64,000 nt of DNA from Candidatus Neomicrothrix parvicella RN1 (GTDB lineage: Bacteria; Actinomycetota; Acidimicrobiia; Acidimicrobiales; VFJN01): positions 991 through 64,990 of the forward strand of contig CAMDIH010000003.1 of the NCBI GenBank assembly GCA_945898515.1, written 5' to 3'. Below are positions 2,627 to 63,008 of this stretch, in pieces (position 1 is the first letter of the stretch; each line of letters begins with the position of its first letter). Below the pieces are notes generated by a model. It did no database searches and was not told where the DNA came from. It saw only the letters and a list, made by a program, of their open reading frames with translations. The position numbers and the translations under genes are program-made.

Positions 2627-3688
2627 ATGGCCCGCTTGGTGGTGCTCGATACCGATGACCCTGCGTTCCTCGACGGCCTCCGCCGGGCCTGGGACGCTGG
2701 CGATGCGATACTGCCGATCGATCCCCGGTGGCCGCCCCCCGTCCGCGCCGCCATCCTCGACGCCGCTCGCCTCGCCGAACCGTGTCTACCGGGCGACGCG
2801 GTGGCCATCGCCACCAGCGGGACCACCGGCGCGCCTCGCGTGGCGATGCTCACCCATGCCGCCGTGGCCGCCTCGGCCAGTGCCACCAGCCGCCGGTTGG
2901 AGGTAGATCCCGCCGGCGACCAATGGTTGGCCTGTCTTCCTCTGGCTCACATCGGCGGGCTTTCGGTGGTCACCCGGGCCCTGATCACCAACACGCCCCT
3001 CACCCTGCAAACCCGCTTCGATGCCGCGGCGGTGGGGCAAGCCGCCGTCGACGGTTGCACCCTCACCGCGCTGGTTCCCACCACCATGAGCCGCGTGAAT
3101 CCGGGCCTGTTCCGCACCATCCTGGTAGGCGGTCAGGCGGTGCCCGAAGAACGCCCGCCCAACGTCATCGCCACCTACGGGATGACCGAGACCGGCAGTG
3201 GGGTGGTGTACGACGGAGTGCCACTCGAGGGGGTGGAACTACGCATCGGCCCCGACGGCGAGATCCAGATACGGGGGGCCATGCTGCTGCGGGCCTACCG
3301 CGACGGACACGACCCCAAGGATGCCCACGGCTGGTTCCCCACCGGCGACTCGGGCAGCCTCAGCAACGGTCTCCTGAGCGTGCATGGGCGCGGTAGCGAC
3401 CTGATCATCTCCGGCGGCGAAAACGTGTGGCCCGCCGCGGTGGAAGCGGCGTTGCTCCGCCACCCGAAAGTGGCCGAAGTAGCGGTCGTGGGTCGCCCCG
3501 ACCCCGAGTGGGGGGCACGGGTGCACGCGGTGGTGGTGCCCATCGAGGCCACCGATCCCCCCACCCTGGACCAGCTCCGCCAGCACGCGAAGCAGTGGCT
3601 CCCGACCTCTGCCGCTCCCCGCTCGCTGCAGATCGTGACGGCCTTACCCCGCACCCCCACCGGCAAGATCATTCGTACCGACGCTTAG
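2627..3688 (+). CDS. menE: o-succinylbenzoate--CoA ligase (short actinobacterial type)
   Basis: This is the C-terminal 354 codons of ORF 1784..3688, starting at ATG 2627 (MARLVVLD). Adenylation motifs TSGTTGAPR, YGMTET, GD.G and PRTPTGKI are present. The upstream ORF part is antisense to menA. Confidence 0.8.
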   Translation: MARLVVLDTDDPAFLDGLRRAWDAGDAILPIDPRWPPPVRAAILDAARLAEPCLPGDAVAIATSGTTGAPRVAMLTHAAVAASASATSRRLEVDPAGDQWLACLPLAHIGGLSVVTRALITNTPLTLQTRFDAAAVGQAAVDGCTLTALVPTTMSRVNPGLFRTILVGGQAVPEERPPNVIATYGMTETGSGVVYDGVPLEGVELRIGPDGEIQIRGAMLLRAYRDGHDPKDAHGWFPTGDSGSLSNGLLSVHGRGSDLIISGGENVWPAAVEAALLRHPKVAEVAVVGRPDPEWGARVHAVVVPIEATDPPTLDQLRQHAKQWLPTSAAPRSLQIVTALPRTPTGKIIRTDA

Positions 3689-4464
3689 CGGCGGGCCACC
3701 GGACCGAGCAACGCTCCACCGTCGACCACCATGACATGGCCGGTGATCCACGATGCCATGTCACTGGCCAGAAAGAGCGCAGCGTTGGCAATGTCGACCG
3801 GCTCCCCGAGACGACCCAGGGGCATGGATGCCGCCATCCGCGTCTCGTTCGGTTCCCACAGCGCCCGGGCCATGTCGGTCTTCACCAATCCGGGGGCAAT
3901 GGCGTTGACCCGCACGTTCGGGGCCAGTTCGGCGGCCATCGTGCGGGTGAGGTGCAACAGGGCCGCCTTCGTAGCGTTGTAGATGCCAATGGAGGGTTCC
4001 ACCGACAGGCCCCCCACCGAGGCGATGTTGAGCACAGATCCGCCCCGCTGCGCTAAGGACCGTTGGTAGGCCAACTGCGTCCACACTAATGGGCCCCGCA
4101 GGTTCACCTCGAAGGTCTTGTCGTAACGCGACAAGTCGATCTCCATCGTGGGACCGATGTAGGGATTGGTGGCGGCATTGTTCACCAAGATGTCGATGCC
4201 CCCGAAATGCTCCACACAGTGATCCACGGCCGCCGCCGCCTGTTCGGGGTCACCGGCGTTGGCAGCCATCACCTCCACGTTGCCCCCGATATCGGCGGCG
4301 GCGGCCCTGAGGTCGGGCAACTTGCGCGACGTGAGCAGTACCGAGGCGCCCGCATCGGCATAGGCGCGAGCGATGGCTTTACCGATACCGCGTGATGCCC
4401 CGGTGATGAGCGCGACCTGTCCTTCTAAAGAGATTTTCACCCCCGAGACCGTACTGTGCGCCAC
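3685..4464 (-). CDS. SDR-family oxidoreductase (FabG-like)
   Basis: TGASRGIGKAIA Rossmann motif, NNAA, and the catalytic YNATK. Confidence 0.9.
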   Translation of the reverse strand: MAHSTVSGVKISLEGQVALITGASRGIGKAIARAYADAGASVLLTSRKLPDLRAAAADIGGNVEVMAANAGDPEQAAAAVDHCVEHFGGIDILVNNAATNPYIGPTMEIDLSRYDKTFEVNLRGPLVWTQLAYQRSLAQRGGSVLNIASVGGLSVEPSIGIYNATKAALLHLTRTMAAELAPNVRVNAIAPGLVKTDMARALWEPNETRMAASMPLGRLGEPVDIANAALFLASDMASWITGHVMVVDGGALLGPVARR

Positions 4465-4483
4465 GGGTTCCTAGGGTGGGGAT

Positions 4484-6460
4484 GTGAACCGACTAGCCGC
4501 TGAGACCAGCCCCTACCTCCGCCAGCACGCCGACAACCCGGTGGACTGGTACCCCTGGGGGGAGGAAGCCTTCGCGGCGGCGGCCCTGACGGATCGCCCG
4601 ATCCTGCTGTCGGTCGGCTATTCAGCCTGCCACTGGTGCCATGTGATGGCCCATGAAAGTTTCGAGGATCCGGCCGTGGCGGCGGTGATGAACGAGCGAT
4701 TTGTGAACGTGAAAGTGGACCGCGAGGAGCGGCCTGATGTGGACGACATCTACATGGAGGCCACTCAGGCCATGACCGGCCGGGGCGGTTGGCCGATGAC
4801 GGTGATCTGCACCCCCGACGGCCGTCCCTTCTTTGCGGGCACCTATTTTCCCAAGGAGCGACGCGGCGGCATGATCGGCTTCGTCGAGTTATGCGAGAGG
4901 ATCGACGAACTGTGGCAAACCCGGCGACCTGAACTTCTTGCGCAGGCCGATCAACTGACCAGCGCTCTCGGACGCTCCGCTCTTCTCGAACCCACCGGCG
5001 ACCTCCCCACCGTGGCCGACCTCGACGGAGCCATCGACATTCTCCTGACCGCCAGTGATTCCGAATGGGGGGGCCTGGGCCACGCGCCCAAGTTTCCGCA
5101 GCCGATGGCCCAAGAGGTACTCGCCGCCGCCGCCGCCCGCGGCCACACCGCAGCACTCGCCGCCCTCACGACCAGCCTGGATGCCATGGCCGCCGGGGGC
5201 ATCTATGACCACCTCGGCGGCGGCTTCTCCCGGTACGCGGTGGACAACGTGTGGCTCGTGCCCCATTTCGAAAAGATGCTCTACGACAACGCTCTCTTGA
5301 TCCGCCTCTATCTCCACGGCTGGCTCCTCACCGCCGAGCCACGTTTCCGCCAGACCCTCACCGAGACCATCAACTACACCATCACCGAACTGCGCCAACC
5401 CGGGGGCGGCACCAGTTCGGCGGAGGATGCCGACAGCGAAGGCGAGGAGGGCCGGTTCTATGTGTGGACCCCCGAGCAGATACGCGACGTGCTGGGCGCG
5501 GAGGCCGATGCCGCCATTGCCTTCTATGGCGTGGAGGCTCCCGGCAACTTCGAGCACAACACCAGCATCCTGAACCGGATGCACGCCCGTGGCGTGCTGG
5601 CCCGACCCGCCGAGATCGAAGCGGCCCGGCAGGCGTTGTTCGATGCCCGTGCCACCCGGGTGCGCCCCGGCCTCGACGACAAGGTGCTCACCGAGTGGAA
5701 CGCGTACCTGGTGGCGGCGCTGGCTGAGGCCGGGGCCGCCTGCAACGAGCCGTCCTGGGTGGCCGCCGCGGTGGAAACCGCCGAGTTTCTCCTCACCCAC
5801 CTGCGACGGCCCGATGGGCGCTGGCTGCGGTCCTGGCAGGCCGATGCGGGCGCCCGTCACCTGGCCTACGCCACCGATCACGGAGCGCTGATCGACGCCT
5901 TTACGCGTCTGGCTGAGGCCACCGGCGAGGCCCGCTGGATCACCGAGGCACGCCGGGTGGCTGACGCGCTGATCCACCTATTTTGGGATGAGGAGCGAGG
6001 CGGAGTGTTCACCACGGGCCACGATGCCGAAACCCTCATCACCCGCCCAAAGGATCTGATGGACAACGCCACGCCGGGGGCCAACGGCCTGGCGGCGGTG
6101 GGGTTGCTGCGCCTGGCGGCCCTCACCGGCCACGAGCCCTACCGGGCTGGCGGCGAAGCGATCGTGGCCCTACTGGGCCCTCTGGCGGTGGCCCAACCCA
6201 CGGCTTTTGGCCAGGTGCTGGCCGCGGTGGATCTTCTGGTGCGCGGGACCACCGAGATCGTGATCCCCGGCCATCGTCCCGATCTGGTGGCCGCCACCCG
6301 CGCCCGTTACCTCCCCGGGGTGGTACTGGCGTGGGGGGAACGCTACGACTCTCCGCTGTGGGAGGGCCGGGAGGACAACCGCGCCTACCTCTGTCGGCAC
6401 TACACCTGCGCACTGCCCGCCGACGACGCCGCCGCCCTGACGGCCCAACTCATCGCCTGA
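4484..6460 (+). CDS. thioredoxin-domain protein, YyaL/DUF255 type, with a six-hairpin glycosidase-like C-terminal domain
   Basis: 658 aa with N-terminal [20 protein letters not shown] start. Confidence 0.85.
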
Positions 6461-56303: not shown

Positions 56304-57251
56304 TCAGCCCCCTTCGGCGGCGAGGAGGGCCGCACCGATGGCGCCCGCCCGATCCCCTAGTGCGGCGGCCACGATGGGCACCGCCGGTCGTCGGTCACCT
56401 GCCATCACGAGATCCGAGAAGCGCATCTGCACCTCCGGCAGGAGGAGGTCAGCCGCCTCCACCAGACCGCCACCGATCACAATGACAGCGGGATCGAGCA
56501 CATTGACGAGGTTGGCCAAGCCGAGGGCGATCCAGTGCGCCAATTGCCCCACCACCGTCAACGCCTCTGCGTCCCCGGCCCGGGCCGCCGCGGTGACGTG
56601 TTCACCTCGTAGGGCTTCGGGGTCCCCGCCGGCTCGCTCGACGGCTCCATCAAGACGCCCTCCATAGGCTGCGTCACGTCCGAGCCGAGCAAAGCCCGTA
56701 CCCGACGCGAACCGCTCCCAGCAGCCGCGCTTCCCACACGGACACGGAGGGCCGTTGGGGTCCACCACCATGTGCCCGGGCTCGCCGGCGAACCCGTTCG
56801 CCCCGCGCAGAAGCCGTCCGCCGGTGATGATCCCCGCCCCGATCCCCGTGCCGAGTGTCACCACGAGCGCCTCGTCGTACCCGCGGGCGGATCCGGCGGC
56901 CTGCTCGGCCACCGCGTGACAGTTGGCGTCGTTGTCCACCACCGTGAGCCGGCCTGACCGTTGGGTGAGAACCTCGGCGAGGGGTACATCGTGCAAGCGC
57001 CGGAGGTGCGGACCCATCCGCAAGGTGCCCTGACGATCGACCAAACCGGGCACCCCCACCCCAACCCGGGCGGCGGGGGCCGACAAGCCAACCACCAGCG
57101 CTAGGAGGGTATCGACGAGGCCATCGCCACCCTCGGGCGTGGGCACTCGCTGCTCGGCTCGGACCACATCGGGGCAGGACGGGTCAAGAGCCACGCCCAA
57201 CACCTTGGTGCCGCCCACATCAATCCCGATGGTCTCCACGACCAACAGCAT
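56304..57251 (-). CDS. ROK-family glucokinase
   Basis: ATG 57251. GIDVGGTKVLG, the zinc motif CPCGKRGCWE, and the C-terminal IGGG. Confidence 0.88.
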   Translation of the reverse strand: MLLVVETIGIDVGGTKVLGVALDPSCPDVVRAEQRVPTPEGGDGLVDTLLALVVGLSAPAARVGVGVPGLVDRQGTLRMGPHLRRLHDVPLAEVLTQRSGRLTVVDNDANCHAVAEQAAGSARGYDEALVVTLGTGIGAGIITGGRLLRGANGFAGEPGHMVVDPNGPPCPCGKRGCWERFASGTGFARLGRDAAYGGRLDGAVERAGGDPEALRGEHVTAAARAGDAEALTVVGQLAHWIALGLANLVNVLDPAVIVIGGGLVEAADLLLPEVQMRFSDLVMAGDRRPAVPIVAAALGDRAGAIGAALLAAEGG

Positions 57252-57292
57252 GCCCGCCGGGGGCCAGCGGCGAGGCCACCCAACGCCCGGCC

Positions 57293-58408
57293 CTAGTAAC
57301 GCAGCAGTGCCCCGATCCGTCCCAACACGTCGAGATCGGCGTTGCCCACGCAAATCGTCACCGGGACGCTCCGCGTCAGAGCCGCCTCGAGGCAGCCTTC
57401 GACCACATCGTCCACCCGCAGCATCGCCACTCCGTTGGCGGGGTTGGTGGGCCCCACCAACCGGAGGGCGTCGGTGGCGGGACAACGCCATCCCGCTTGG
57501 GCAAAGCCACGTGAAATGAGCAGTCGCTCGACGCGATGTTCATTGAGCGCCTGCAGTGTTGGCCCTAGTCCAGCCACCCCCTTGCCGCCCCCAGCCACCG
57601 CCTGGCGCAGCCGCGCTACTAGGGCCGTCTCCTGTCCTCGCTCCACGCTTAGTTCCACCTCTTCCGCGGCGCGCTGGACGTCGACGGGGGCAGCCCCCAC
57701 ACCCAAGGGGACCCGACCGCAATAACGCTCGCGAAGATACGGGTGCAGATTCTGTACGAGCTCGCTCACGATGGCATCGGGGCCACCGATCACGAGGTGA
57801 TGGAATCCTCGGTCCTGCCAGAGGTCGAACGCGGCCTGCGCGGCGTGACGGAGATGGCGTTGGGCCAACTCCTTGCGGTGCGGTGCAGGGGTATCCCGCT
57901 CGCGCTCCCCCCGAGTGGTGAAACCACGCCGCGGTGCATCCAACCATTCGCAGTGTTCGATCAACTCGCCCATAGCGAAGACGTACAACTGCACGCGCTG
58001 CTTGTCGGCCAAGAGCACCCCGACGGGTTCGTGCTCCTGCAACATCAACTCAAGTTGGCCCACCGCCGGCGCATGGTTGATCACAAGTTGGGATTGCACC
58101 GGCTTTGGTAGTTCGATGACCTTCCACAAGCCACAAGCCGAGCCGGCGAACATCGCCAGCCCACGAGCATGATGTCGGTCGATGCCAGCCCGGACGAACG
58201 CCTCGATCCGGTTGAGGTCTTCGTGCACCGACGGGTACCCGTTGGCCCGTAGTCGAGCGCCCCGGAGCAACCCATCCAACTCGTGCTCAACATCGGAGCG
58301 CCGCAGCAGCCGACGGCCGTCCACGTTGAGGTAACAGGAAGTGACCGGAACGGTGTGTCCCCTGAGCCCAGCTAGTTCCCGAATGGCGGCTTCGGTGATG
58401 ACGACCAC
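57293..58408 (-). CDS. eRF1/Pelota-like protein (bacterial archaeo-eukaryotic release-factor, baeRF-type)
   Basis: 371 aa. N-terminal VTSCYLNVDG, a central host-attachment-like region (HRKELAQRHLRHAAQAAFDL...HHLVIGGP), and a C-terminal eRF1-domain-3-like region (GVAGLGPTLQALNEHRVERLLIS...GRIGALLRY). No GGQ motif. Confidence 0.5.
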   Translation of the reverse strand: MVVITEAAIRELAGLRGHTVPVTSCYLNVDGRRLLRRSDVEHELDGLLRGARLRANGYPSVHEDLNRIEAFVRAGIDRHHARGLAMFAGSACGLWKVIELPKPVQSQLVINHAPAVGQLELMLQEHEPVGVLLADKQRVQLYVFAMGELIEHCEWLDAPRRGFTTRGERERDTPAPHRKELAQRHLRHAAQAAFDLWQDRGFHHLVIGGPDAIVSELVQNLHPYLRERYCGRVPLGVGAAPVDVQRAAEEVELSVERGQETALVARLRQAVAGGGKGVAGLGPTLQALNEHRVERLLISRGFAQAGWRCPATDALRLVGPTNPANGVAMLRVDDVVEGCLEAALTRSVPVTICVGNADLDVLGRIGALLRY

Positions 58409-58631
58409 TGCACCTCCGTGTCAAAAAGGACGCCCTGATCGTAGGTCACCCGGCAGGCCCGTGCGCTGAGCACGGTGCATGACATGCATGGCCGGCGTTT
58501 GGTTCGGGGAGCACGATCGCGAGGGCCCGTGCGGGGGACACGATCACCCGCCTTGGAATCCCGGGGATTGTCGGGCGAGTGCCCTCGGGGGATGGCCGTA
58601 CCCGGCCCCGCAGCGACTGTTGTTTCGACCC

Positions 58632-58778
58632 GCTACCGCCATCGCCACCGGCGACCTCGATTGGTGGGCGTTGTTGGGCGACGGAGCCATCAAATGCTGG
58701 GGCAACAACAGCAACGGGCCGTTGGGGAACGGCACCACCCTCAACTCGACGGTTCCGTTGACGGTGACCGGGTACTGA
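58632..58778 (+). pseudogene. remnant of an RCC1-repeat (beta-propeller) gene
   Basis: The tail of ORF 58479..58778 reads AIATGDLDWWALLGDGAIKCWGNNSNGPLGNGTTLNSTVPLTVTGY, about 1.3 RCC1 repeats. It is followed by a stop and frame-shifted repeat-like sequence. Confidence 0.35.
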
Positions 58779-58888
58779 GTTGCCGGTGGGTTGACGGGCG
58801 GTTGAGTCGCCGGTCGGCGGCCTCGGCACCCGGCGACCAGCAGGAACCGGGCCCCCTGTCGCCCCCGCCATAGACCACCGCGTCGTCA

Positions 58889-59461
58889 CTACCCGGTGGC
58901 GTGCACGATCTTGGCTTGTTCGGCTCCCGCCAGTAGGACCCACTCCAACACGTCGGAAACGTCACTCACGATGATCACCTGCACATCCTCCGCCATGGTC
59001 CTCAACCGATCAAGCACATGGTGGCAGGCCGACCCATCGAGGTCATGGAATACGTCGTCGAGGAGAAGGGGCATCGCACCAGCCAACGAGGCGGCCCGAT
59101 GAGACCCCAGGCGTCTCAGTAGGTGCCACTCGATCTCCTCGGCGACGGTGGTCTCGTCGTCGCGCCTATTCGCCCCCCGGGTTGGCCGAGAGCCGTTGGA
59201 AGGCAGATCGCCCGCGTGCACCACTGGCCGTATCTCGCCCAGTCCCAGATCGATGAGGGCCAGCATCTCCTCCGAGAGGTCGAAGAGCACCCCGTGGGCT
59301 TCGACCAGCCCCGGCCCAACCGGGGCGGCCCCTTGGGCCATGCCCATCAGGGCGGCGACGAGGCGCAGGCGCTGATGCTGATCCATTCCTGCCACCACCG
59401 TGATATTCGGATGGAAGGCCACCTCCAGGCCAGGGGAGATGGTCAGCTTCACCAACCTCAT
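58889..59461 (-). CDS. degenerate ABC/SMC-head-like protein lacking Walker A
   Basis: N-terminus MRLVKLTISPGLEVAFHPNITVVAG, followed by MDQHQR where GxxGxGK(S/T) is expected. Signature-like LGSHR and Walker-B/D-loop-like MPLLLDDVFHDLD. The ATG lies 2 nt after the upstream stop. Confidence 0.55.
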   Translation of the reverse strand: MRLVKLTISPGLEVAFHPNITVVAGMDQHQRLRLVAALMGMAQGAAPVGPGLVEAHGVLFDLSEEMLALIDLGLGEIRPVVHAGDLPSNGSRPTRGANRRDDETTVAEEIEWHLLRRLGSHRAASLAGAMPLLLDDVFHDLDGSACHHVLDRLRTMAEDVQVIIVSDVSDVLEWVLLAGAEQAKIVHATG

Positions 59462-59463
59462 CC

Positions 59464-59736
59464 TTAGGACACCCGAATCCGCTGCACACCTTCGTCGCCG
59501 TCATCCTCGGCACCATCACCGGCCTGGGGGGTTACCGTCGAGCGCAGCCGATCGGCGGCGGCCGTCGCCACGGTGGCCACGGTAGCCACGATGTCCTGCA
59601 CCACCGTGGGGTCATCCAGAAGATCCTCGGCCGCATCCAAGAAAGCGCGCGATGCCTGAATCACCTCACGAGCAGCAGCCTGGAGATGCTCAAGAACCCT
59701 CTGGTCGGCGTTGTTTTGGTACTTAGGAGTGTCCAC
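59464..59736 (-). CDS. small acidic helical protein
   Basis: GTG 59736 with AAGGAG 6 nt upstream (59748-59743), both inside the 3' end of the ArsA-like gene. 90 aa with an Asp/Glu-rich tail. The ORF track lists TTG 59751 as the start. Confidence 0.55.
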   Translation of the reverse strand: MDTPKYQNNADQRVLEHLQAAAREVIQASRAFLDAAEDLLDDPTVVQDIVATVATVATAAADRLRSTVTPQAGDGAEDDGDEGVQRIRVS

Positions 59737-60907
59737 CAACGTCTCCTTCAAAGATCACCTTCAGACGGCCAGCCAACATCTTAGCGTCGAGGACTGCCCG
59801 ATTCCGGAGAGAATCGGGCAGGGTCACCGCCCGCCGGTAGGCCCCCACCTTGAGGAGCAACTCGTCGCCTTTACGGCCCAGCTCCACATCGTCGCGGTCG
59901 GCGAAAGGCAACTCGATCACCAGAGTGGTCCGTCCATTGCGGCGGGTCATCTTGAGCGGCTGTCCCTGGAACAAGATGGCCGCCGCATCGAGGTCGCCAT
60001 ACAGCCGCTGGGCGAACCCCCGGAGCGCGTCGACACCGATGAGTTCCTCCGGGGCGAGTTCCACCTTGAGCACCGGCAAGGGGGCAAACCCCTCCTCGAT
60101 GGTCTTCAGATGTTCGAGGTGAAGTTCCTTCCAGCGATCGAACCACGGATCGCAGACCCCCTCGGGGAGAAGCCGATTGACCACCACAGCATCCACCCGG
60201 TAACCGAACAGCGAGAGGTAGGTATAGGTGCGTCGGGCCTCGGCGATGACCATGCGCTCCGGATTCACGACCAGTCGCACACTGGAGCGGGCCGGGTCCA
60301 TGAGGATCTCTTTTACCCCCTCGAGTCGATCGTAAAAGGCGCTGGTGGCTTCGAACACCCCGTCGCCGGCCACCGGCAGGGACGTGAGACGCTGGAGCAC
60401 CGGCCCCACCACCCGATTCACCCGGCGACCGGCCGGAAAGAGGCGCTCCATGTAGCGGGAGAGGACGTCGGGAAGGGAGAGGAGGCGGATCGTCTCGGCG
60501 GTGGGAGCACAGTCGACCACCACGACATCCCATGCACCGCTGTCGGCATGCACCTTGATGTCGGAGAGCGCAAAGATTTCGTCGAGGCCCGGCACAACCG
60601 ACAGTTCCTCGGCCTCAAGGCCTTCCACACCCGCCCAGGAAAACACTTCTCGCAGGTACTGCTGAATCTCGTGCCAGGACTCCTCCATCCGCTCTTGAGC
60701 ATCGAGTTGCTGGCCCCATAACGATTGACTGATCACCACCGGCAGGGGACCCAAGGGCAGGTCGAAGGCGTCGGCGAGGGAATGAGCCGGATCGGTGGAT
60801 AGCACGAGCGTGCGCAGGCCGACATCGGCACAGGCCAGCGCAGTGGCCGCCGCCGTGGTGGTCTTACCCACACCACCCTTGCCGGTGAACAGCAGGACGC
60901 GAGTCAC
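59723..60907 (-). CDS. ArsA/Get3-family ATPase with a C-terminal HSP20-like domain
   Basis: Deviant Walker A FTGKGGVGKTT, STDPAHSL and DCAPT. The last ~85 aa are beta-rich (TLVIELPFADRDDVELGRKGDELLLKVGAYRRAVTLP), resembling an ArsA_HSP20-type domain. Confidence 0.85.
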   Translation of the reverse strand: MTRVLLFTGKGGVGKTTTAAATALACADVGLRTLVLSTDPAHSLADAFDLPLGPLPVVISQSLWGQQLDAQERMEESWHEIQQYLREVFSWAGVEGLEAEELSVVPGLDEIFALSDIKVHADSGAWDVVVVDCAPTAETIRLLSLPDVLSRYMERLFPAGRRVNRVVGPVLQRLTSLPVAGDGVFEATSAFYDRLEGVKEILMDPARSSVRLVVNPERMVIAEARRTYTYLSLFGYRVDAVVVNRLLPEGVCDPWFDRWKELHLEHLKTIEEGFAPLPVLKVELAPEELIGVDALRGFAQRLYGDLDAAAILFQGQPLKMTRRNGRTTLVIELPFADRDDVELGRKGDELLLKVGAYRRAVTLPDSLRNRAVLDAKMLAGRLKVIFEGDVGGHS

Positions 60908-60934
60908 CGATGACCCAACAAACCTGCTGTCACC

Positions 60935-61378
60935 TCAGGACTCAATGTGGGCCCGCAACTCGCGGAGCGCCGTATGAATGATTTTTATTTCCGCCCGCCG
61001 CTTCACGAAACCGGGGATGGGAATAAGTAACTCCACTGCCAAATGGTAGGTGACCTGGGTGCCACCAGGGAGGTCGACGGCGGGCTCGAGCAGGTACGAA
61101 CCATCGAGTCGGCGCATGATGTCGCCGCTCACCAACTCCCAACTGATCCGACACGGGTCGTCGTGGTAGGTGTAGCGGAGGGTGTACTTGGTGCTCCGGC
61201 CCATGGCGGCCGCCCGATAACTGACCTCTTGGCCCCGACCGCGGGCATCACGGGAATCCACGGTGACCCCTTTGATATCCAACGCCCAGGAGGGATAGCG
61301 CTCGAAATCCACGAGACGCTCCATGATGCGCTCCGGCGAAGCGGCAATGTCCATCGTCTCAGTTGCTTGCTCGGACAT
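60935..61378 (-). CDS. SRPBCC-family (START/polyketide-cyclase-like) protein
   Basis: 147 aa with IAASPERIMERLVDFERYPSW...YTLRYTY...LDGSYLLEP, typical of the family. Confidence 0.75.
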   Translation of the reverse strand: MSEQATETMDIAASPERIMERLVDFERYPSWALDIKGVTVDSRDARGRGQEVSYRAAAMGRSTKYTLRYTYHDDPCRISWELVSGDIMRRLDGSYLLEPAVDLPGGTQVTYHLAVELLIPIPGFVKRRAEIKIIHTALRELRAHIES

Positions 61379-61426: not shown

Positions 61427-61879
61427 TCACGCCACCTGCGGGTCAGGACGATCCTCGAAGTGGGCATACCGACCACCCCACAGGGCCATGCATCCAAGAC
61501 CGAACAATGGCGCCAACACCCCGAAGGCCACCTCCGTAAAGGGGTGTAGCGCGGCCGCCGCCACCACCACCACGATCTCGAGCACCACTGCCCTCCGGAA
61601 CCCCCGTCGCACCGCGGGCGGGGCTGCCGGCGGCGACAGCAAGAACAGGCCAGGGATGCTCACGTCCTCGAGGCGACTACGCGAGATCCCCAAGGCGTAC
61701 GCCCACAGCAGCGCCACGGTGCCGATAAGAAAAAACAGACCGGCGATCGCCACATAGGCAGGGCCGAACCGGTCGGGAGCCACCGCCACCACACCGCTGC
61801 TCACCACCAACACACCGGTACCCACCCCGGTCACTCGCCAGAGGGCTCCGCCCTCGGGCCCTTCGAGCGCGTCAGCCAT
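61427..61879 (-). CDS. four-TM membrane protein
   Basis: ATG 61879 overlaps the GT4 gene 3' end by 8 nt. The upstream part of ORF 61427..62023 was rejected. Confidence 0.6.
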   Translation of the reverse strand: MADALEGPEGGALWRVTGVGTGVLVVSSGVVAVAPDRFGPAYVAIAGLFFLIGTVALLWAYALGISRSRLEDVSIPGLFLLSPPAAPPAVRRGFRRAVVLEIVVVVAAAALHPFTEVAFGVLAPLFGLGCMALWGGRYAHFEDRPDPQVA

Positions 61880-63008
61880 GCGCGGTGGCCTCCCATGCCG
61901 TGATGGCGGCTCCGAGACGCTCCGCCAGATCGTCATAGGCGAAGGAAGCCGCGGCCCGAGCCCGACCAGCGGCGCCGAAGCGCATCCGTTCAGCGGGGTT
62001 ATCCAGCAACCGGGCCAATGCATCGGCCACGGCGCGAGGGTCGTGCGGATCCGTGACGACCAAACCCGTTTCGTTGTGGACCACGGCCTCGGCGGCTCCC
62101 CCGCTGTCGCCGGCTACTTGGGCCACTCCCGTGGCGGCGGCCTCCAGGAACACAATCCCGAAGCCCTCCTGTTCCAACCCGGCCCATCGGTTCCGACAGG
62201 CCATGGCGTACACGTCGGCGCACCCGTACAAGCCCGGAAGATCCTCCTGCGACACTCGGCCCAGCAACCGCACTGGCGCGGCAGTTGCGGCGATCAGTCG
62301 GGCCAATCGGCGCCGATCACGTCCGTCGCCGCCAATGGCTACAACGAGATCGGGCCGGCTCGGGGCCAGGAGGGCCGCAGCCCGGATGAGTACATCCATT
62401 CCCTTACGGGGCACCAACCGACTCAGGCTCACCACCACCCGGCCTTCCACCGGAAGGCCCAGACGGACCCGGGCGGCGCACCGATCATCGTGACTCAGCG
62501 GCACGAACCGCTCGGTATCCACCCCGGGCGGCACGACCACGCTCGGCAGCGAGCGGCCGGCGGCGCGTTCCGCCTCGGCGAGGGGGTACCCCCCCGCCGC
62601 GATCACCAGAGAGGCACCCTGCAGTACGCCGCGCAAGGCCGAGCGGGATCCCGGCAGACGACCGGGCACGGTGATTTCGGCACCGTGGAGCACCACCCCG
62701 TAGGGACGTGAGAGGCGCGGGCCCACCAGCCCCACGGGTAACGCAGGGTCGAGTATCACCACCGACGCGCCCACGGCATCGGCGAGAACACCGATGCGGC
62801 GCACCAGGGCGGGGGTGGGCAGGAGCACCCGCTCACGGGTGCGCACCACGCGAAACGACTGGGTGGCATCCCAAGCCGCGGCACCGGGCGAGGGGGTGGT
62901 CAACACCACGAACGATGAGGGATCCAAACGGCGCCACAACTCCCAGAGCATGCTCTGGATCCCGCCGATTTTAGGTGGGAAATCGTTGGTGACAAAAAGA
63001 TGAGTCAT
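61872..63008 (-). CDS. GT4 glycosyltransferase, PimB'-like mannosyltransferase
   Basis: The N-terminus MTHLFVTNDFPPKIGGIQS is characteristic of actinobacterial PimB'-type enzymes. C-terminal EGFGIVFLEAAATG. Confidence 0.8.
   Translation of the reverse strand: MTHLFVTNDFPPKIGGIQSMLWELWRRLDPSSFVVLTTPSPGAAAWDATQSFRVVRTRERVLLPTPALVRRIGVLADAVGASVVILDPALPVGLVGPRLSRPYGVVLHGAEITVPGRLPGSRSALRGVLQGASLVIAAGGYPLAEAERAAGRSLPSVVVPPGVDTERFVPLSHDDRCAARVRLGLPVEGRVVVSLSRLVPRKGMDVLIRAAALLAPSRPDLVVAIGGDGRDRRRLARLIAATAAPVRLLGRVSQEDLPGLYGCADVYAMACRNRWAGLEQEGFGIVFLEAAATGVAQVAGDSGGAAEAVVHNETGLVVTDPHDPRAVADALARLLDNPAERMRFGAAGRARAAASFAYDDLAERLGAAITAWEATAHG

Follow-up and report, generated by a model that had tools for sequence, protein, structure and literature searches.

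With which partners does a bacterial Get3 homologue work if it carries a C-terminal alpha-crystallin-like domain (aCD)? This question is raised by a locus of Candidatus Neomicrothrix parvicella RN1, located in a stretch of 64,000 nucleotides (nt) of contig CAMDIH010000003.1, which is referred to here as the window. Positions 58889 to 61378 contain four co-directional genes on the minus strand, encoding an SRPBCC protein, an ATPase of the Get3/ArsA family, a small acidic protein and a fourth protein of 190 amino acids (aa). The listing of open reading frames (ORFs) and the sequence itself confirm the layout given in a first-pass annotation of this DNA: 27 nt separate the SRPBCC gene from the ATPase gene, the ATPase gene and the small gene overlap by 14 nt, and 2 nt lie between the small gene and the fourth gene. 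The first three genes are proposed to encode the core of a three-protein system of the Actinomycetota, consisting of a Get3-like, dimeric aCD ATPase, an SRPBCC protein and a translationally coupled small partner, which would act as an ATP-gated chaperone for hydrophobic cargo. A probability of about 0.4 is assigned to this reading as a whole. Its parts differ in strength: the gene anatomy and its conservation are held with high confidence, functional coupling of the triad is somewhat favoured, and the specific mechanism is tentative.

The ATPase gene (59723 to 60907, minus strand) begins with GTG and encodes 394 aa. The protein matches the Pfam family ArsA_ATPase (PF02374) with an E-value of 1.4e-87 and 294 bits against a cut-off of 24.3, covering residues 2 to 303 of the 305-position model, and it reaches 262.2 bits with the NCBIfam model TIGR00345 (GET3_arsA_TRC40; cut-off 135). 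Its C-terminus (residues 324 to 386, encoded at 59750 to 59938, minus strand) matches the alpha-crystallin-like family ArsA_HSP20 (PF17886) with an E-value of 3e-19 and 68.8 bits against a cut-off of 22.5. The deviant (intradimeric) Walker A motif GKGGVGKTT occupies residues 9 to 17 (60857 to 60883, minus strand) and is invariant across the alignments A1 and A4. The first-pass call of an ArsA/Get3 protein with an HSP20-like extension therefore holds, and by its family matches the protein is assigned as a single-domain member of the Get3/ArsA/TRC40 subfamily with an aCD. Weak matches to AAA_31, CbiA and ParA were confined to the P-loop region and stayed below their cut-offs, and a positioning ATPase of the ParA/MinD type was rejected as a candidate. 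A protein of an Acidimicrobiia metagenome-assembled genome (MAG) is 97% identical to the ATPase. An AlphaFold2 model built from 12 close homologues reached a predicted local distance difference test (pLDDT) score of 39.9, which is too poor for inspection of the groove; only the aCD was predicted with moderate confidence (pLDDT of about 70), with seven beta-strands in residues 318 to 387. JGI and NCBI label nearly all homologues as 'arsenite-transporting ATPase' or 'arsenite/tail-anchored protein-transporting ATPase'.

Among solved structures, the closest sequences are archaeal Get3 proteins of M. jannaschii and M. thermautotrophicus (3ug6/3zq6), which align over the full length with an E-value of 2e-49. 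Solved Get3d proteins, which also contain an aCD, follow with E-values of 5e-23 (3igf) and 3e-14 (8elf). Get3d of Nostoc (All4481, 3IGF/8EGK) and of Arabidopsis (8ELF) shares with the window ATPase the combination of a single ATPase domain and an aCD (PF02374 and PF17886), the deviant Walker A motif and the absence of CxxC. The window ATPase is nearer in sequence to archaeal Get3 than to Get3d, and its host is non-photosynthetic; with the NosAFP equivalog NF050088 it scored 149.7 bits, below the cut-off of 325. Judged by sequence, it has the Get3d architecture, yet belongs to a clade other than the cyanobacterial and plant Get3d. The eukaryotic and archaeal Get3/TRC40 proteins resemble it as SIMIBI-class ATPases that pass TIGR00345, but differ in that the window protein has an additional aCD and no zinc-coordinating CxxC dimerisation motif, its only cysteines being C26, C133 and C252. 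BagA and BagB (Rv3679/Rv3680) of the same superfamily are distant paralogues. NCBIfam gives E-values of 1e-15 for BagB (58 bits; cut-off 521) and 9e-12 for BagA (45 bits; cut-off 400), and PDB entry 6bs3_B matches with an E-value of 4e-13, with only the N-terminal ~150 residues aligning. BagAB is a heterodimer encoded by two ATPase genes, and has neither an aCD nor SRPBCC or DUF5304 neighbours. No Get1/2, Get4/5 or Sgt2 was recognised among the annotated neighbours of the window ATPase, a statement restricted to these neighbours as no genome-wide search was made, and homologues of Get1/2/4/5 or Sgt2 are not known in bacteria.

Get3 homologues with an aCD have been described before. Farkas et al. 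(2019, PMC6593721) reported such homologues with an insert in the hydrophobic groove in Actinobacteria, without an assigned function, and grouped them ('group 6') apart from ArsA. For Get3d, ATPase activity and a closed hydrophobic chamber with lipid-like density were found (PMC10248533). Get3d captures a tail-anchored protein without the need for its aCD, which packs on the surface that is used by Get4 in yeast, and the authors of that study stated that new partners are required. Neither paper mentions fixed SRPBCC and small-protein neighbours.

The SRPBCC (START-like) gene (60935 to 61378, minus strand) encodes 147 aa and lies in a TB16.3/Rv2185c-type position. Its family assignment is secure at the level of sequence, again in agreement with the first-pass call: Polyketide_cyc2 (PF10604) matches residues 4 to 146 with an E-value of 3.3e-13 and 50.6 bits (cut-off 27.4), Polyketide_cyc matches above its cut-off with an E-value of 4.8e-9, and the PDB entry 5z8o, a 'cyclase/dehydrase', matches with an E-value of 1.4e-9. 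Assignment as a toxin of the Rv0910 type was rejected, with 17.5 bits against a cut-off of 100.

With the ATPase as query, one genome per GTDB species was scanned, which yielded 487 relatives, the best 80 of which were used. Nearly all of these 80 carry Acidimicrobiia/Acidimicrobiales or Actinomycetota labels, with ATPase identities of 65–93%, and they include Microthrixaceae, Iamiaceae, Aquihabitans, Ilumatobacteraceae and others. Gene counts were obtained for 82 Acidimicrobiales-type loci, in which six-frame ORFs were searched by phmmer with the window proteins; many of the misses are due to contig ends. The order QueG, PimB'-like GT4, membrane protein, SRPBCC, ATPase, small protein, fourth gene (where present), Balon-like protein and ROK kinase recurs in about 80 other species, which is more than expected by chance. 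The first-pass annotation had proposed a conserved actinobacterial module around the ATPase and the SRPBCC protein. Comparison of neighbourhoods beyond this genome bears out the pair, as the SRPBCC gene is located directly upstream of the ATPase gene in 80 of the 82 loci and in all eight Actinomycetes-type loci described below. The small gene was detected in 78 of the 82 loci; inspection by eye revealed it, with the same tail, in two of the other four, and the gene is found in essentially every locus that covers its position. The remaining genes are less constant (membrane protein 74, ROK 59, Balon-like 51 and fourth gene 49, each of 82). Compared with L001, the nearest relative with a long contig, the ratio of nonsynonymous to synonymous substitution rates (dN/dS) is 0.09–0.12 for the GT4, SRPBCC and ATPase genes, with 0.12 for the ATPase, and 0.17 for the small gene. 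The core triad is under strong purifying selection (dN/dS 0.12–0.17).

The triad is also present in a second class. An exhaustive HMMER search of 1.84 billion cluster representatives returned one cluster with 72% identity to the ATPase, all other full-length relatives having at most 50%; representatives of high GC content include Pseudonocardia, Thalassiella, Egibacteraceae and Cryptosporangiaceae. A profile built from these representatives retrieved proteins of Actinomycetes (MAGs labelled Frankiales, Mycobacteriales and others), and eight contexts were examined (L082–L086 and L118–L120). All eight contain an SRPBCC gene (143–149 aa), an ATPase gene with ArsA_HSP20 (395–401 aa) and a small gene (101–154 aa) whose overlap with the ATPase stop measures 4 or 16 nt. 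In seven of them a ROK gene follows directly after the small gene, L119 being the exception, and further out a PimB'-like GT4 gene, an AMP-binding (FadD-like) gene on the opposite strand and an acyltransferase gene are found. Matches between the classes have E-values of 1e-50 to 1e-64 for GT4, 1e-21 to 1e-27 for SRPBCC, 1e-88 to 1e-121 for the ATPase and about 1e-55 for ROK; by sequence, these four proteins are clearly orthologous across the classes, SRPBCC and ATPase at full length. As the classes share only about 48% ATPase identity, the gene arrangement must be old. The gap between the SRPBCC and ATPase genes stays at about 25–60 nt. The Balon-like gene and the 150-aa membrane protein gene are absent from the eight Actinomycetes loci. 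A Metallophos phosphoesterase gene lies just before the SRPBCC gene in six of the eight (as a short fragment in L084; none in L086 and L120), and three of these six also contain a double-zinc-ribbon (DZR) protein.

The small gene (59464 to 59736, minus strand) encodes 90 aa and most plausibly starts at the GTG at 59736, which lies behind a GAAGGAG Shine-Dalgarno sequence; an alternative TTG start at 59751 would extend the overlap with the ATPase gene to 29 nt. The product is acidic, as the first-pass annotation had stated, with an isoelectric point of 4.23 and 17 D+E against 8 K+R. Acidimicrobiales small proteins have in common a helical core, G[VL]EHLQAAAREhIxAxRxLLDxAEELVxDP, after which come an acidic linker that varies and a near-invariant C-terminus of the form [PRG]-V-[QE]-[RH]-I-x-V-S. 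In the window protein this tail reads VQRIRVS (59467 to 59487, minus strand) and contains the I-x-V motif that is conserved among the relatives. In 77 Acidimicrobiales sequences, V is present at position -7 in 67, I at -4 in 73, V at -2 in 65 and S at -1 in 62; IPV and IRV are the most common variants, and IPV ranks first, with P at -3 in 27 of the 77. The Actinomycetes counterparts end in V-[EQ]-[RH]-[IV]-D-[IV]-[GE] in seven of eight cases. The tail is therefore conserved in both classes, while similarity in the remainder of the small protein has become nearly undetectable through divergence.

Is the small protein of the window the same protein as its Actinomycetes counterpart? The latter belongs to DUF5304 (PF17230) in five of the eight loci according to precomputed listings, and two that were scanned directly scored 41.6 and 30.8 bits against a cut-off of 26.8. 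The window protein itself matches no Pfam family, and PF17230 gives no match at E ≤ 10. Among its Acidimicrobiales relatives, 4 of 27 members match PF17230, the best with an E-value of 0.012; alignment of the family with DUF5304 by hhalign gives an E-value of 0.0012 at a probability of 20%, and the hidden Markov model of alignment A5 matches one DUF5304 ORF with an E-value of 0.009. The motif CxLCP[VI]C is present in seven of the eight Actinomycetes small proteins, L086 having CRYCPWC. It is absent from the window protein, which contains no cysteine, and was not seen among the 60 Acidimicrobiales sequences listed. A working definition, which is ours and not that of Pfam, combines the position overlapping the ATPase gene with an end of the form V-[EQ]-[RH]-I-x-[IV]-[SG]; the window protein has both. 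Since position, coupling and C-terminal heptapeptide are shared, equivalence is the economical reading, and the window protein is probably a remote, cysteine-less relative of DUF5304.

The comparison extends to better-known Actinomycetes. In the locus of a MAG labelled Mycobacteriales, NlpC/P60, DUF3071 and GT4 genes are followed, with interruptions, by an AMP-binding gene on the opposite strand, then by SRPBCC, ArsA_HSP20, small and ROK genes, and further on by an acyltransferase gene. This fits the presumed order Rv2190c–Rv2182c of M. tuberculosis, including the part Rv2188c–Rv2183c that the first-pass annotation had given. Rv2185c/TB16.3 and Rv2186c appear in a 2026 review as START-like proteins with unassigned function, and Rv2183c (131 aa, 'Trx-like') is given in a 2013 paper as forming an operon with Rv2184c. 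The 'Trx-like' label is compatible with a CxxC-type motif, and in one Actinomycetes locus, L119, the small gene encodes a DUF5304 protein of the same length, 131 aa. Matched by position and annotation, Rv2185c–Rv2184c–Rv2183c would show the SRPBCC/ATPase/small order of the MAGs labelled Mycobacteriales and Frankiales, with an acyltransferase gene and not a ROK gene presumably following the small gene. On the same grounds, SCO2129–SCO2128–SCO2127–glkA of S. coelicolor can be likened to the locus. SCO2129 is an ARO/CYC (SRPBCC) family protein (PMC3784963). By analogy of gene order, SCO2127 is probably the DUF5304 gene, which is offered as a lead only. SCO2127 adjoins glkA (SCO2126), and going by the titles of papers, it has reportedly been linked to the activity of glucose kinase, the uptake of glucose, catabolite repression and the binding of BldKB. 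The Acidimicrobiales differ from the M. tuberculosis and Streptomyces loci by the insertion of the long parent form of the fourth gene, named g4L here, and of the Balon-like gene before ROK.

How could the three proteins work together? In the proposed mechanism, binding and hydrolysis of ATP would open and close a hydrophobic client chamber of the ATPase, which would hold or deliver a hydrophobic cargo, either a membrane-protein segment or a lipid or glycolipid. The C-terminal I-x-I/V motifs of small heat shock proteins (sHSPs), as well as the IPV motifs of BAG3, bind the beta4/beta8 groove of alpha-crystallin domains. The tail of the small protein looks like such a docking motif, being flexible and acidic with its I-x-[IV] at the extreme C-terminus, and having its gene beside that of an aCD-carrying protein. 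By analogy, the small protein may dock its I-x-V/I tail on the aCD and, once docked, might regulate the ATPase or recruit clients in a Get4-like role. The SRPBCC protein would bind or hand over the hydrophobic ligand. The physical interaction, the cargo and the role of each partner are all inferred. A function as an envelope or lipid chaperone is plausible; the neighbourhood of PimB', FadD and acyltransferase genes makes a link to membrane lipids or glycolipids attractive, although it proves nothing. A bolder version is considered unlikely: the triad would be an unrecognised bacterial machine analogous to the system for guided entry of tail-anchored proteins (GET), with tail-anchored proteins or glycolipids of the phosphatidylinositol mannoside (PIM) type as cargo at the cytoplasmic face of the membrane and with the small protein in a Get4-like role, to which the Acidimicrobiia would add an ATPase-dead, SMC/Rad50-like scaffold.

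Several points weigh against the proposed chaperone triad. The aCD of Get3d lacks the typical oligomerisation features of sHSPs and no ligand of its groove has been reported (PMC10248533), so that docking of the I-x-V tail is an analogy. The groove of the actinobacterial homologues contains few or no methionines (Farkas et al., PMC6593721). The homology between the small protein of the window and DUF5304 is marginal, and the CxLCPVC motif of the latter is missing. Long-range synteny of actinobacterial core genomes can persist without functional coupling. In addition, the ABC fold of the fourth gene, which is discussed below, rests on E-values of 0.03–0.05 and non-significant Foldseek matches.

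Other functions would be compatible with parts of this evidence. The ATPase could be a general holdase for stress or dormancy. As a cytosolic aCD-ATPase for proteostasis, comparable to oxidised yeast Get3 or to sHSPs, it would serve during starvation or hibernation without any membrane or lipid cargo, with co-regulated stress genes as its neighbours. The alpha-crystallin domain and the co-directional Balon-like hibernation factor, present in the same block in 51 of 82 Acidimicrobiales loci, speak for this, as do the documented holdase mode of Get3 (PMC3613179) and the protection of M. tuberculosis from glycerol and nitric-oxide stress by the paralogous BagAB (PMC10597346). However, the CxxC of the Get3 redox switch is missing from a protein whose cysteines are C26, C133 and C252 only, the aCD of Get3d is dispensable for client capture and does not form oligomers (PMC10248533), the Balon-like gene is absent from 8/8 Actinomycetes loci, and the invariant SRPBCC partner would be left unexplained; this function appears unlikely. 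A service to the downstream ROK glucokinase, in which the triad or at least the small protein would assist folding, activation or membrane association of the kinase and play no part in envelope or lipid biology, is rated as quite unlikely. Such a role could draw on the orthology of the ROK proteins across the classes (E-values of about 1e-55). It could also draw on gene position: ROK comes next after the small gene in 7/8 of the Actinomycetes loci, and 59/82 Acidimicrobiales loci have it within the co-directional block. In S. coelicolor, where SCO2129 is annotated as ARO/CYC (PMC3784963), paper titles tie SCO2127, which by gene order is likely the DUF5304 gene, to glucose kinase. Nevertheless, in Acidimicrobiales one or two unrelated genes lie between the small gene and ROK, in L119 no ROK gene comes after the small gene, and the biochemistry of Get3 and SRPBCC proteins gives no pointer to a soluble sugar kinase as client. 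In M. tuberculosis, this place is presumably taken by the acyltransferase.

It is also conceivable that these are housekeeping genes independent of one another, whose proximity would reflect a stable actinobacterial core order and no functional coupling. The block from PimB' to ROK is syntenic across the classes and includes unrelated functions such as QueG and ROK, and no promoter or terminator signal above background was found. On the other hand, the stop/start overlap between ATPase and small genes is kept in both classes, as is an SRPBCC–ATPase gap of about 25–60 nt, and g4L was seen in no other context. The flanks have been swapped between the classes (the membrane protein against the zinc-ribbon and Metallophos proteins, with Balon-like and g4L genes inserted), while the triad was found broken in only one locus, L108. 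Little probability is thus given to mere neighbourhood. That of an arsenite-efflux ATPase, as the protein is named in many databases, is negligible. The name derives support from the ArsA_ATPase match and from the JGI and NCBI names of the homologues, but the protein has a single domain within 394 aa, in contrast to the tandem ArsA of ~580 aa, and scored 103.4 bits against a cut-off of 650 with NCBIfam arsen_driv_ArsA (TIGR04291). Neither the nine co-directional neighbours nor L001 (21 genes) or L082–L086 contain ArsB, Acr3, ArsC, ArsD or ArsR, and the aCD homologues were grouped apart from ArsA by Farkas et al. (PMC6593721). The database name 'arsenite-transporting ATPase' appears unsupported, and on sequence grounds wrong, for this aCD clade.

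The fourth gene (58889 to 59461, minus strand) lies outside the ancestral core. Residues 1 to ~95 and ~104 to 190 of its product match the N- and C-terminal ends, respectively, of a single ORF of 670–980 aa that is located at the same position in relatives. The fourth gene is an in-frame internal-deletion remnant of this parent, g4L, a putative coiled-coil protein, from which the arms and the hinge-like part are gone, leaving the head only. In the 78 loci with a small gene, g4L is full-length in 34, reduced to a mini form in 4, absent from 26, partial owing to contig ends or frameshifts in 11 and uninformative in 3. The mini forms are those of the window, L001, L002 and L070, the last being a separate case of 278 aa. 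Where g4L is absent, the next gene lies within 400 nt of the small gene in 24 of the 26 loci. The closest relative retaining the long form, L003, has 87% ATPase identity, which indicates that the deletion is recent. The dN/dS of the fourth gene (0.385, window against L001) is relaxed, yet below 1; together with the existence of homologues, this led to rejection of an orphan or spurious ORF. Among 5.8 billion proteins, only two relatives of the 190-aa protein were returned by a word-index search. The first-pass annotation had regarded the two downstream genes as lineage-specific add-ons. For the small gene, with its presence in 78 of 82 loci and its DUF5304 counterpart, this does not apply; the fourth gene is indeed restricted to Acidimicrobiia-type loci, yet it is a remnant of a protein of 670–980 aa.

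Full-length g4L consists of a conserved N-lobe, two poorly conserved arms of ~250 aa rich in A, E and R, a conserved central block between them and a conserved C-lobe. This layout, which is similar to that of Rad50 and SMC proteins, is the strongest support for the ATP-binding cassette (ABC) head that the first-pass annotation had seen in the fourth gene and described as P-loop-less. ABC and SMC heads have the Walker A consensus GxxGxGK[ST]. No GK[ST] is found in the 24 family members aligned in A3, where the family reads HPxxTVVxGL, and the P-loop-less part of the description therefore stands. The corresponding stretch of the window protein, GMDQHQRL (residues 25 to 32, 59366 to 59389, minus strand), is placed by the AlphaFold2 model between a strand (residues 20–24) and a helix (residues 28–42). 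The C-lobe retains a Walker-B-like PLhLDD and a D-loop-like xLD, which in the window protein read PLLLDD (residues 131 to 136, 59054 to 59071, minus strand) and DLD; no variation is seen in A3 at P131 and D135. In the family, Asp stands in place of both the catalytic Glu and the H-loop His, and A3 contains no LSGGQ/E signature, the corresponding stretch being EWxLLxRL without SGG. Judged by the missing Walker A, catalytic Glu and H-loop His, the parent would be catalytically dead. Rad50, SMC and RecN appear to resemble g4L in the order of N-lobe, helical arms and C-lobe, in a Walker-B-like hhhhDD and in xLD, but differ in Walker A and LSGGQ/E; moreover, the fourth-gene protein of the window has no arms, and all statistics are marginal.

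Direct support for the ABC half of the description is weaker. The fourth-gene protein matches no Pfam family, SMC_N reaching an E-value of 0.031 over the Walker-B region. The family profile matches the C-lobes of Rad50, UvrA, SMC, RecF and ABC nucleotide-binding domains in the PDB with E-values of 0.045–2 (0.045–0.3 for Rad50, UvrA, SMC and RecF), all at profile positions 100–168, in the Walker B/D-loop region. A Foldseek search with the AlphaFold2 model (pLDDT 61.8) listed mostly ABC-type heads, none of them significant. An ABC-type fold of the fourth gene and g4L is accordingly a marginal assignment. Kinship with RNA 3'-phosphate cyclase was rejected, the match to PDB 4o89 (E-value 0.89) being noise, and the designed armadillo-repeat proteins at the top of the profile-versus-PDB list were discarded as repeat-summed artefacts in which no single stretch is significant. 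The central block of g4L (e.g., L013, 7909–10512, residues ~375–520) has the pattern RFGGxR ... LR..E..LL..LGFxSYxxYMM ... DP and is hinge-like, with no Pfam match. It contains no cysteines and thus is not a Rad50 zinc hook.

Metagenome contigs were scanned with g4L heads as query (alignment A7, narrower than A3). In 28 of the 29 informative loci, the gene next after the small gene is g4L, which thus appears confined to the cluster. It was seen in Acidimicrobiia-type loci only, has often been lost, and has no Pfam model. In the exception, L108 (JAABUQ010012283.1, ~3066–6276), the SRPBCC gene is followed after ~240 nt by a full-length g4L gene; the ATPase and small genes are missing, and the sequence contains no Ns. 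This is the sole broken triad that was seen. Two further loci deviate in other ways: L053 (9201–12323) contains a pair of g4L-like ORFs in tandem, each of ~520 aa, which may stem from a duplication or a split, and in L038 (9408–12875) g4L and the Balon-like gene share one stop-to-stop ORF, a possible fusion or assembly error.

The genes upstream of the block form the gap-poor series that the first-pass annotation had noted, with a 1-nt overlap between QueG and GT4, an 8-nt overlap between GT4 and the membrane protein gene, and 48 nt between the latter and the SRPBCC gene. QueG scores 208 bits with TIGR00276 (cut-off 200). The GT4 gene (61872 to 63008, minus strand) encodes a putative mannosyltransferase that matches Glycos_transf_1 with an E-value of 7e-35 and PimB' of C. 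glutamicum (3oka/3okc) with an E-value of 8.5e-62 over its full length (residues 4 to 366), the next PDB match having 3e-20; by its closest solved relative, it is assigned as PimB'-like. The multi-pass membrane protein (61427 to 61879, minus strand) has four helices and matches no Pfam family. Its start was set by comparison with L001, in which the same length of 150 aa was called.

Downstream of the fourth gene, a spacer of 480 nt (58409–58888) precedes the Balon-like gene. This spacer is ~418 nt longer than in L001 and L002, with which only its last ~60 nt are common. On its plus strand, positions 58479–58778 contain an ORF of 99 aa that encodes just one RCC1 repeat (Pfam RCC1, 22.5 bits; cut-off 21.7) and resembles the remains of a gene after an insertion or rearrangement. 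The Balon-like protein (57293 to 58408, minus strand) matches baeRF_family10 with an E-value of 4e-19 and, over its full length, the 'ribosome hibernation factor Balon (MSMEG_1130)' (PDB 8v9j_z) with an E-value of 3.3e-9; it scores below the cut-off of the NCBIfam MSMEG_1130 family. The ROK-family (glucokinase-type) kinase (56304 to 57251, minus strand) matches Pfam ROK with an E-value of 8.6e-71. Its mechanically called ORF (395 aa, 56304–57491, minus strand) overlaps the Balon-like gene by ~200 nt. Going by the length of 315 aa in L001 and by where the Pfam match begins, translation would really start near 57251, 41 nt past the Balon-like stop. A consensus scan of the locus for promoters and terminators gave results at or below shuffled expectation, Rfam and tRNA scans of the window were empty, and a repeat scan returned short matches at chance level only.

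Part of this picture is already known: the architecture of the ATPase has been described as 'group 6' and Get3d, and all three core families are in databases with their function unassigned. The literature searched does not describe the fixed triad, the shared tail motif with its possible docking to the aCD, or the P-loop-less, SMC-like family of this cluster. The fourth gene, as a degenerate relic, is less interesting as a gene, yet it exposes the unannotated g4L parent family. Bacterial aCD-Get3 homologues are widespread and without an assigned partner or function, and the Get3d study states that new partners must exist. The locus and its ~120 relatives nominate two partners, namely the SRPBCC protein and the small DUF5304-like protein, and by position the same partners are probably present in M. 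tuberculosis (Rv2183c–Rv2185c) and in Streptomyces (SCO2127–SCO2129). A link to the old, unexplained glucose-repression phenotypes of SCO2127 is possible. The conserved tail of the small protein offers a concrete, mutable candidate for an interaction motif. Thus, an ordinary-looking conserved operon provides a testable partner hypothesis for bacterial Get3 homologues.

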